In this document: positions 1 through 3,000 of the stretch, piece by piece
How positions within the stretch are numbered: position 1 is the stretch's first letter
How the letters are laid out: the number at the start of each line of letters is the position of its first letter
IMG/VR virus record: IMGVR_UViG_2695420476_000004
Length of the DNA stretch: 13,048 bases
Reading direction: 5' to 3' (one strand)
Source: a virus
Lineage: Duplodnaviria > Heunggongvirae > Uroviricota > Caudoviricetes
Program-made: the position numbers

Positions 1-3000
1 CCTCAAAAACACCATCATACACTAAATCAGTAAGTTGGCAGCATCACCAGCCTTCTTGAGGCTACCACCTGTTTTCAGGTGTCATTCAGACGTGATTTGC
101 CCCAGATTGGGAAAGCACGCTTTTTTCTCAGCTATCGTCCTCTTATTTTGCCGTTACATTTCTTTTTGCATTCTAATGATTAATTTACAATAATAATATC
201 GGTAATTATTGAGTAATAATAAATTAATTATTGCAAATGTAATTTAATTCCATCTTCGCGTTATATTCCAATCTTTAATCTCCGCATGGAACAAGTTGCA
301 TGCGTGACTATATTAAGACGACTTATAACCACCAAAACATTTGCTTTGCAAGCAAAAACAGTGACCATTGACTCTAAGAAAATTCCGATCTATTGTTAGG
401 GTCATCAAAGTTACTTAACAGTATTCCGAAATGAAAATACAAAGCAAGCTAATTGTCTTATTAAACATTATTATTGCATTTATATTATTTGAGCTTTTAG
501 CTCAAAAATTTGGTTTGAGTACATTATTTTAAAGCAAGATAAACAATATCGGGCACTCTAGTTTTTATAATTAACAATTAAACGTCCATAAAATGTTATT
601 TACTTTTCTTCGCTATTGTCATATCTTAATATAGTGGCTTACGCCACTCTACTTTCATCACATTTTGTACGTTTATGTACTCGCCATGAAGCTCTTTCAT
701 GGCGATTTTTTATTCTTAATCCAAGAACATACTCCCTACCTATAGCAAAATCACTTTTTTAACAAAAGAATAACGTATTTAGGTAATCATTACGAATTTA
801 CCCTATAGGTGCTACTGGCCATTCAATATCCGGTGCAGTTGATGTATCAACACGGTTCAGCAACACCCGATACTTTTTCCAAGCTTCCAGCAACAAGGTT
901 TCTTTCTCCGTTGCGATCTCCAGATCCACAGCATCCTGAAGCGGCGCTATATGCTCACTGGCTACCTGCATCAGGCTGTTTTTTGTTTCTTCCGCCTCCC
1001 GGATCCGGAACAGTTTTTCTGCTTCCGTATCCTTCACCCAGGCTGTGCCGTTCCACTTCTGAAACTCCCCTTCCGGGGATAACCAGGTGACATTTTCCGG
1101 TAATGAGCCGAGTTCAGAAATAAATAACGCGTCGCCGGAAGCCACGTCATAAACCGTTTTACCCCGATGATCTTCAACGAGATGCCACGATGACTCATCA
1201 CTGTTGAAAACAGCCACGAAACCAGCCGGAATATCTGGCGGTGCAATATCGGTACTGTTTGCAGGCAGACCTGTATGAGGCGGAATATATGCGTCACCTT
1301 CACCAATAAATTCATTAGTTCCGGCCAGCAGGTTATAAATTTTTATGGTCCGTGCTTGTTCACTCATTCTGAATGCCATTATGCGAGCCTCACAATATAG
1401 TTAAATGCGATGTTTTTGACGGTGTTTTCCGCGTTACCAGCAGCGTTAACGGTGATGGTGTGTCCATGTGAACCAATCGCAACAGAGTGCGTATGAGCAC
1501 CAATACCGACAGTATGCGCGTGTGCACCCGCAGATGCTGCTGTGCCGGACAGTGAGTGTGTATGGTTTCCTTCTGAAGATGATTTACCTACCCATTGGGA
1601 GGTGCCACTGGTTAATGAGCCACTGATACCAACCTGATTAGTCCCGCTAACTTGAGTACTCCCTGCCGGAAACATTCCAGTAGGTTGACTCCCGCTATTC
1701 GTTCTGGGCCCAGTCTGACTATGTTGGTGGGCCCCAGCTGAACTTGTAGAGCCGCTCAGACTGTGCGTATGCGCCCCGGTGTTATTCGTGGATTTAGTGC
1801 CGTAATCAAACGACGATGTGGTTTTCGTCCCCAAATCCGTACTGGATGCGCTGGCGCTGTGGGTGTGCGATTTAATGCCATCCTGTTCCTGAGACAATAC
1901 GGCACGACCACTGGCGGGCTTGCCCTTAATCGTCCAGCCACGCATATCAGGGATCACGCCTGACGGATAAGCGGCTGCAAGTTTCGGGTAAGCAGATTTG
2001 TCAAAAGTCTGCCCCTGCATCAGGGCATAACCAGACGGAACGGTATCTGATGGCCACGGGATTGGTGCACCGACTGGATAAAACTCTGCAGGAGGATGAG
2101 CCGAGGTGTAAAGCTGCGCCCACGGCGACCAGTTTGCGTCGGTCGTATCCCGTCGTGAACGAATAAATGCCGGAGCATGAGCACCGCTTGTACCACTCCA
2201 GCCGATGAGTAACTCACCTTCGCCAACGGCTGTCATCCCTTTCAGGTGAATGATATTTCCATACGCTGTTGGATATCCGTTGTTATACACCTCGTATAAC
2301 TCAAGACCTGCTGCCCCCTGCGTATTGTCTGTCAGCGCGGCTACCCGACCTTTTGAAGCCAGATTAACTGATGATACTGCTGTTCCACCTGACGGTAGCG
2401 CCCCGATCTCTGATGCCGTTGGCTTATTTCTGGAGTTATAGTCCCTTCGCCAGCCAGGTGAATAATCTGTTCCGTGATTAATATAGGTAAACTGGGCGTT
2501 GGTTGTTCCGCCACCGCTGGATGTGGTCGGAGTGGTAATGCGGATCGTCATCGCTGACTTTATCCCCATTACTTCAATGACAGCTCCGGCGAGATGAATA
2601 TTACCGCAGCCAGTATCAGTAATGATTTTATTATTGCCATAAGACCAGGAACCCTTGCACATCCAGTATGGATGGTTAAATGCTCCCTGAGAATCCAGCC
2701 ACTCGATAAACTGTGCAGTCGTCCAGTTTCCTGTTGTTGTGCTTACTGACCCACCGAAGGCACGGCAGGCACCAATATTTTTCGTAAAGGTGTCTTTGCC
2801 AGGGATATCCGCACCGTTCTGATCTTTCTGCAGACGTTTCTCAGCATTGTCATTGGCTGCTTTTACTGCCTTTGGCGTTGCCGCCAGCGTTTCAGACGTG
2901 CTGTTGGTCGCGCTGCTTAGCTGGATTATCCCTTTCTGTGCTGTCGTTGCATCCTGTGCGGTGTATTTCCCGTTAGCCAGGTCATACGCGGCCTTAACGG

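Follow-up and report, generated by a model that had tools for sequence, protein, structure and literature searches.

The AT-rich island at the prophage end

The virus record IMGVR_UViG_2695420476_000004 (Caudoviricetes) is a stretch of 13,048 nucleotides of DNA, analysed here at its full length and referred to in the following as the window. Close to its left end, next to the 3′ end of the tail fibre assembly gene tfa, lies an AT-rich island (130-797), most of which is taken up by a conserved cassette (~255-797) that carries a gene of 33 codons. The gene is under purifying selection, its predicted product resembles the Escherichia coli stress peptide YncL, and the cassette as a whole is probably a moron, i.e. 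a piece of extra DNA added to a phage genome. The features at this end of the window are listed by position:

1-48, no strand: terminal inverted repeat of the insertion sequence IS1 (insA-proximal end); a complete 768-bp IS1A ends exactly at this junction in locus L001 (strain O78-3)
49-133 (85 bp, 48% G+C), no strand: relic phage-side arm of the attachment junction of a serU-integrating lambdoid prophage, by homology beside serU
134-254, no strand: very AT-rich filler (17-24% G+C), with homology boundaries from alignment and BLAST of 60 loci
~255-797, plus strand: conserved 545-bp cassette (promoter-like site, 33-codon gene, 3′ untranslated region (UTR) and terminator), always joined to the tfa 3′ end
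368-396, plus strand: candidate sigma-70 promoter TTGACT-17 nt-TATTGT, from a consensus scan
431-532, plus strand: 33-codon gene, convergent with tfa, for the YncL-like single-pass membrane peptide MKIQSKLIVLLNIIIAFILFELLAQKFGLSTLF, from an NCBIfam profile and codon constraint
633-648, plus strand: small conserved hairpin AGUGGC-UUAC-GCCACU in the 3′ UTR, from the fold of 626-716
681-715, plus strand: intrinsic terminator with a 10-11-bp stem, CGCCAUGAAG/CUUUCAUGGCG, followed by AUUUUUUAUU, from terminator scans and folding
798-1379, minus strand: tfa, the last late gene, the 3′ end of which anchors the cassette (Pfam Caudo_TAP, E 4.6e-44; RefSeq annotation in L001)

The G+C content is 29.5% over 130-797 (29.4% over 134-797) against 54.7% over 798-13048. 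In a sliding profile it falls from ~50% within tfa to 25-32% from roughly position 800 down to 130, and the minimum of any 664-bp segment elsewhere in the window is 46.4%. The right edge of the island is the tfa stop codon (798) and its left edge, at ~134, is the end of homology to the G+C-richer 85-bp segment at 49-133. The computed values thus agree with the first-pass annotation, made from the sequence by a reader without database searches, which had noticed a sharp drop in composition at the tfa stop and AT-rich DNA down to about 130. That annotation also placed the island correctly after the tail fibre genes, at a site of morons and cargo, recognized its foreign composition, and was accurate in stating that nothing of 60 aa or more is encoded there, the longest open reading frames (ORFs) in a six-frame list being of 48, 37, 35 and 33 aa; at a threshold of 60 aa, the real 33-codon gene went unseen. 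Its description of the island as the only clearly accessory sequence in the window was too strong, the IS1 end (1-48), lom (4561-5043) and a relic end of the J gene (5114-6562) being accessory too.

Other ORFs of the region were considered and rejected. The 37-aa ORF at 286-399, annotated as hypothetical in the phages PhiR70_1 and ev099, has ACG in place of its ATG in the Qin-like and sit-type copies and is not a conserved gene; the 48-aa ORF at 616-762, with a TTG start, extends over the terminator, and 1-nt indels interrupt it in other copies; and the ORF at 35-193, which has its start inside IS1, is a junction artefact.

A 33-codon gene for a YncL-like peptide

The ORF at 431-532 is under strong purifying selection. 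The ratios of non-synonymous to synonymous substitution (dN/dS) are 0.04, 0.05 and 0.09 against three other alleles, and frames +1 and +2 show no synonymous excess. With respect to the sit-type alleles, synonymous changes number 5 (or 4), against a single non-synonymous one; with respect to a divergent allele of ~80% identity, 11 synonymous and 7 non-synonymous changes are distributed over 19.7 and 79.3 sites, respectively, and indels occur right after the stop codon and further downstream, with none in the ORF. All 33 codons are intact in each of the 59 copies sampled (7 nucleotide alleles), in which third codon positions account for 13 of the 23 variable sites and second positions for 2, and the amino-acid changes are mostly conservative (V/I, I/F, F/L). 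One frameshift variant is known, from a metagenome.

The sole match of the peptide among 18,950 NCBIfam models is YncL (NF000537, an equivalog model; E 1.3e-5, 25 bits). YncL is a stress-induced inner-membrane protein of 31 aa, the production of which leads to sublethal depolarization, a phage-shock response, decreased protein synthesis and nucleoid condensation (PMC12542507). It is among the in vivo substrates of the protease RseP (PMC10470546) and, in Salmonella, the protein (STM14_1932/STnc1110) depends on sigma-S and had first been entered as the small RNA (sRNA) STnc1110 (PMC5437024). In a BLASTP alignment with YncL of E. coli K-12 (b4598), 11 of 28 positions are identical (39%) and 18 of 28 are positives; residues M1, S5, K/R6, V9, L10, N12, A16, L19, F20, L22, K/R26, F27 and G28 are common to both peptides, with N12, K26, F27 and G28 standing opposite N12, R26, F27 and G28 of YncL. 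With a small YncL profile built for this analysis, the peptide scores 19.0 bits, against 14.7 bits for the best of 5,000 composition-preserving shuffles. Both peptides have one hydropathy peak (19 residues), at residues 7-25. Thus, the prophage peptide, with its 33 aa, shows the size and motifs of the YncL family (about 31 aa, one helix, N12, and a basic residue followed by F and G after the helix), and the two are also alike in a short stand-alone transcript, which is predicted for the prophage gene.

There are also differences between the two. Native yncL lies between patD and ortT, with the strong Shine-Dalgarno sequence AAGGTGG, and responds to heat shock, minimal medium and sigma-S, whereas the prophage copies are found only beside tfa, in prophages, and have no such ribosome-binding site. 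No DNA similarity can be recognized between the native and the prophage loci, and the prophage peptide has a longer C-terminus (GLSTLF, against GWFI in YncL).

The gene has gone almost entirely unrecorded. Among ~15 billion predicted proteins the peptide is present in no more than two metagenomic gene calls, both unnamed; a phmmer search of 1.84 billion representatives returned only the peptide itself and one frameshift variant; and Pfam, PHROGs and PADLOC gave no match. RefSeq has no annotated feature under any cassette match, and a literature search with the peptide string, and for small prophage proteins beside tfa, found nothing on this gene.

Signals for transcription and its termination

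A promoter-like site of the form TTGACT-17-TAT(T/C)GT is found at the homologous position upstream of the gene in all three alleles, the sit-type and the 80% allele included. In the latter, mismatches number 3 over the 29 nt of the promoter core, whereas the two flanks have 12 over 28 nt and 9 over 34 nt. Downstream, a 3′ UTR of ~150 nt ends in the intrinsic terminator, placed by the consensus scan at 681-705 ahead of a U-run, which recurs at homologous positions in the sit-type and 80% alleles and is active on the plus strand only, so that the transcript it ends converges on tfa. The segment 626-716, composed of the small hairpin and the 10-bp terminator stem, folds with -27.1 kcal/mol (z = -6.8), a value that no shuffle equals; it is 90-100% identical in every copy, and the stem of the hairpin at 633-648 is kept in all alleles, one C-to-U change giving a G-U pair. 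Rfam at permissive thresholds, as well as repeat and tandem-repeat searches, gave no match in the island.

A mobile cassette in several prophage contexts

The distribution of the island was determined by BLAST in 5,426 complete E. coli genomes and 48 IMG/VR contigs. The unit at 360-720 is present in 828 of the complete genomes (~15%), in 942 places, with at most four per genome and never on plasmids, and the 91-nt terminator block (626-716) in 827 genomes and 933 places, i.e. almost never without the ORF. The refuting case put forward in the first-pass annotation, namely that the region might match ordinary intergenic DNA of the host chromosome, does not apply, the sequence being confined to prophage contexts and to 15% of genomes. 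The search for intact homologues that it had proposed was productive in that intact copies of the cassette were found in prophages and phages, and fruitless in that no larger gene lies under the matches.

The right boundary of the cassette is the tfa 3′ end in every case. The left boundaries are discrete and vary with the context, being found at window position 1 (with IS1), at 49 (uninterrupted prophages of the type that integrates at the lambda attachment site, att-lambda), at 220 (Qin-like prophages in ydfJ, the commonest setting) and at 252 (sitABCD prophages, some of them in icd). Across at least four settings (att-lambda/bio, Qin-like in ydfJ, sitABCD/icd and serU prophages) the cassette is 94-96% identical; the divergent allele is carried by ~21 genomes. 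The island is also found, without IS1 and at 98.5-99.2% identity, in the deposited genomes of phages mEp332, PhiR70_1 and ev099 (two records). At the same position in related phages the cassette may be absent, as expected of a moron in its sense of ‘more DNA’. In locus L006 a diguanylate cyclase takes its place, and the Qin end of K-12 has ynfT, ydfK and pinQ there, with only the tfa 3′ end in common with the window.

In this K-12 prophage, the position corresponding to that of the cassette, from the ydfJ junction to tfaQ, holds the gene for YnfT (L065 5891-6004), a hydrophobic peptide of 37 aa, but its sequence is unrelated to that of the prophage peptide described here; small membrane peptides may be recurrent cargo of this prophage end. 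In a sitABCD prophage (L005 5766-6456), a simple scan found no intrinsic terminator from the sitD stop to the cassette terminator ~690 bp downstream on the same strand, so that in prophages of the sit type transcripts reading through from the sit operon, which is under Mn/Fe regulation, could likewise cover the small gene.

The mosaic left flank

To the left of the cassette, the island and its border are a mosaic. The body of IS1 lies outside the window, to its left, with the transposase transcribed away from the island. By comparison with mEp332, IS1 replaces 550 bp without target duplication, and its far-side junction depends on the strain (191 bp further on in locus L022), whereas the junction at 48/49 is fixed, a pattern that points to IS1-mediated adjacent deletions.

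Several hundred genomes have a match to the 85-bp segment at 49-133 alone, located beside zinT/serU, and in L006, L035 and mEp332 the equivalent segment lies ~110 bp from a 60-nt 3′ fragment of serU. The mEp332 DNA that is deleted here includes this 60-nt fragment of tRNA-Ser(CGA) serU, followed by 278 bp corresponding to the K-12 yodB-serU spacer (96.7%). This host DNA captured in the genomes of mEp332 and PhiR70_1 is found at 2051-2388 in L002 (mEp332), and also at 4551-5085 in L006 and 10344-10700 in L035. Related lysogens of the mEp332/PhiR70_1 prophage type are integrated at the lambda attachment site; as read from these homologies, phages that integrate at att-lambda carry the fossil right-end junction of a serU prophage together with captured chromosomal DNA. 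The strain APEC 102026 has a serU-integrated prophage with the order zinT ... cassette ... tfa, which looks like the ancestral layout.

In the window, the tRNA core repeat that accompanies the arm in a serU attachment junction is not found, and 85 bp of the arm (49-133) are left; judging from the comparison with mEp332, the serU 3′ fragment was removed in this lineage by the IS1-associated deletion. The earlier suggestion that the island might mark the prophage boundary therefore holds for a relic, confined to 49-133; the present prophage end lies a few kilobases further left, beside ybhB/bio (L001).

The filler at 134-254 shows no conserved ORF or repeat in the ORF list and repeat searches. 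Its first 86 bp (134-219) are specific to att-lambda-type phages (mEp332, PhiR70_1 and ev099), and 220-254 are shared with the Qin-like prophage. In Qin-like and some att-lambda-type prophages the place of 134-219 is taken by an unrelated AT-rich segment of 1.0 kb (35% G+C; L035 9324-10343, L004 5030-6000), which encodes a 65-aa ORF (MNGESFNFDDNDIEF..., RefSeq WP_000348576.1, hypothetical) with no PHROG match.

Beyond the serU/spacer relic, mEp332 carries a gene for an AraC-family regulator and IS2 debris. This AT-rich gene (247-250 aa), followed by IS2 fragments, is found at 4331-5074 in L001 and 1001-1753 in L002, and in some strains (L022) the deletion associated with IS1 stops just 15 bp short of its start codon, on the upstream side, which may alter its expression. 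That the island is the upstream region of this regulator gene was rejected: in uninterrupted phages relic chromosomal DNA and the serU fragment lie between the two, and the cassette also occurs without the gene.

Neighbouring genes

Beyond tfa the order is stf (1379-4468), a short lom, a relic J fragment and J. One further feature was delimited in this part of the window:

5114-6562, minus strand: second, partial copy of J, an ORF of 482 aa covering J residues ~690-1158, between J (6799-10278) and lom (4561-5043)

This copy is 73% identical overall to the full J upstream, with its last ~130 residues (the receptor-binding end) strongly diverged, and has the appearance of a host-range cassette, relic or spare, that a recombination left behind. 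The product of lom is short at the C-terminus, its 160 aa covering positions 1-159 of the 199-position Ail_Lom profile. Inside the tfa coding sequence, 838-1036 on the minus strand matches the Rfam entry IS009 with 218 bits, for a gathering score of 117; this entry, listed as an RNA family, apparently corresponds to the conserved 3′ portion of tail fibre assembly genes, the same stretch that anchors the cassette.

A probable moron and the readings that compete with it

Computation establishes that the composition changes abruptly, that the ORF is constrained at codon level and its product similar to YncL, and that a terminator is present, as well as the distribution of the cassette and the mosaic history of the region. 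From these results it is probable that the core of the island (~255-797) is a moron encoding a YncL-like peptide, and that the island represents the accessory ‘b-region’ at the end of a lambdoid prophage. Morons, as defined by Hendrix and Juhala, have a deviant G+C content, a promoter and a terminator of their own, and are expressed from the repressed prophage (PMC3594210). The cassette has the first of these properties (29% against 55% G+C) and its own terminator, together with a promoter-like site that is conserved but of chance-level frequency. The closest precedent is gene 15 of HK97, a moron whose small inner-membrane product, gp15, prevents superinfection (PMC3594210). Like the cassette, gene 15 is a variably present insert of deviant G+C in a lambdoid tail region, with a promoter-like site and a terminator, encoding a small inner-membrane protein (predicted in the present case). 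The two differ in that there is no sequence similarity between them and that the cassette follows the last tail gene on the opposite strand, whereas gene 15 lies inside the tail operon.

The cassette would then be a self-contained unit on the strand opposite to the late operon, with a candidate promoter, the small gene, the 3′ UTR and a terminator that faces the tfa end. The unit would be transcribed from the repressed prophage, and the peptide would insert into the inner membrane and act there, possibly by lowering the membrane potential, by analogy with YncL, or alternatively by interfering with the entry of incoming phage DNA, by analogy with HK97 gp15. The function proposed from these analogies is that of a membrane peptide expressed in the lysogen, which modulates membrane energetics or the entry of phage DNA. 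During lytic growth, antiterminated late transcription would be expected, from established lambdoid biology, to cross the unit in antisense. Between prophages the cassette probably spreads by recombination via the conserved tfa 3′ end.

Several observations weigh against this interpretation. The YncL score of 25 bits is below the curated NCBIfam cut-off of 35 bits, and short hydrophobic helices can converge in sequence. There are just three main alleles, all of them from E. coli, and with so little diversity the test of selection is based on few independent changes. No relatives were found beyond E. coli, a scan of species-representative genomes having given only native yncL (E. coli and Citrobacter). 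Promoter-like sites are no more frequent in the AT-rich island than in shuffles (6 found, 4.7 expected). The gene has no Shine-Dalgarno sequence, the best anti-Shine-Dalgarno pairing being -0.4 kcal/mol against -7.2 for native yncL; its translation would therefore have to be independent of such a sequence or leaderless. DNA as AT-rich as this is expected to be silenced by H-NS. Evidence from transcripts, ribosome profiling or proteomics was looked for and not found.

If the interpretation is pushed further, the peptide might represent an unrecognized, prophage-specific branch of the YncL family, translated independently of a Shine-Dalgarno sequence (from a leaderless or S1-dependent mRNA) and expressed in the lysogen as a lysogenic-conversion factor that would alter membrane energetics or block superinfecting DNA, and moving via the tfa 3′ end; in this complete form the proposal is possible, if rather doubtful.

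None of the four candidates of the first-pass annotation, i.e. an H-NS-bound regulatory region, a decayed cargo gene, an sRNA locus or the prophage boundary, is the main answer for the island. An H-NS-bound regulatory region is plausible from base composition. A decayed cargo gene finds no support in searches down to ~65-70% DNA identity, which gave no longer gene-bearing homologue; near and distant DNA searches of phages, plasmids and E. coli genomes returned only the same unannotated sequence, and the cargo is the intact 33-codon gene.

The sRNA locus fares better, in that the unit does resemble a short independent transcript, although no Rfam family matches it. In its developed form this explanation holds that the unit is mainly a regulatory RNA, either an sRNA or a 3′-UTR-derived sRNA from 626-716, with the ORF secondary or the transcript of dual function. 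The segment 626-716 is the most conserved part of the unit, with 6-7% divergence from the divergent alleles against 28-34% for both flanks in one allele or another, its layout of hairpin, U-rich spacer and terminator is that of Hfq-type sRNAs, and Salmonella yncL itself was first listed as an sRNA (STnc1110; PMC5437024). Yet this conservation may reflect mosaic recombination breakpoints, the FCI51 allele being A36-like to the right of the block. All Rfam scores are far below the gathering score of the family, the best in the island being MicC (22.8 against 90), Aar (19.6 against 60) and Esr41 (15.6 against 102), and a role as RNA only would leave the codon-position bias of the ORF unexplained. 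We regard a predominantly regulatory RNA as unlikely.

The size and hydrophobicity of the peptide are also typical of type I toxins (Hok, Ldr, TisB, ShoB and Ibs), small hydrophobic membrane peptides that are in part prophage-borne, as is hokD in Qin. Hence the possibility of a type I toxin-antitoxin system, in which a hydrophobic membrane toxin, controlled by an antisense RNA, would stabilize the prophage end or abort infection. Overproduction of YncL depolarizes the membrane and lowers viability (PMC12542507), and the missing Shine-Dalgarno sequence and long UTRs would suit a tight translational control. However, the minus strand has no terminator-like site in or near the ORF and promoter-like sites at chance level only, so that the antisense RNA signals of such systems are missing; the peptide matches no toxin profile in PADLOC, Pfam or NCBIfam, and no antitoxin family of Rfam is found; and the 5′ UTR has no conserved fold-back like that of hok/ldr mRNAs, the AUG region being unpaired in the centroid structure. 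The arrangement is thus very improbable.

Least credible of all is that the island is non-functional filler, i.e. AT-rich recombination debris at a prophage end, silenced by H-NS and with an accidental ORF: debris is indeed present (the IS1 end, the relic serU arm and the lineage-specific filler), and the absence of a Shine-Dalgarno sequence and of RefSeq annotation favours such a reading, but the low dN/dS (0.04-0.09), the 59 intact copies out of 59, the similarity to YncL above all shuffles and the fact that the cassette has stayed together in 828 genomes, across four or more unrelated prophage contexts, speak against it.

Implications

Small membrane proteins are routinely missed by annotation, and the gene of the cassette is essentially without a database record in spite of its presence in ~15% of complete E. 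coli genomes. The mosaic to its left is a record of how a prophage end is rebuilt, in which the scar of IS1, the remnant of a serU junction and the chromosomal DNA taken up by an att-lambda phage can be told apart. The product of the probable moron would be a further candidate among the few small inner-membrane proteins of morons with effects on host physiology or on susceptibility to phages. The gene also provides a link between phage cargo and YncL, a stress peptide of the chromosome whose function is still unclear; lysogens of K-12 for mEp332, with and without the gene, offer a simple genetic system in which the role of YncL-type peptides can be addressed.

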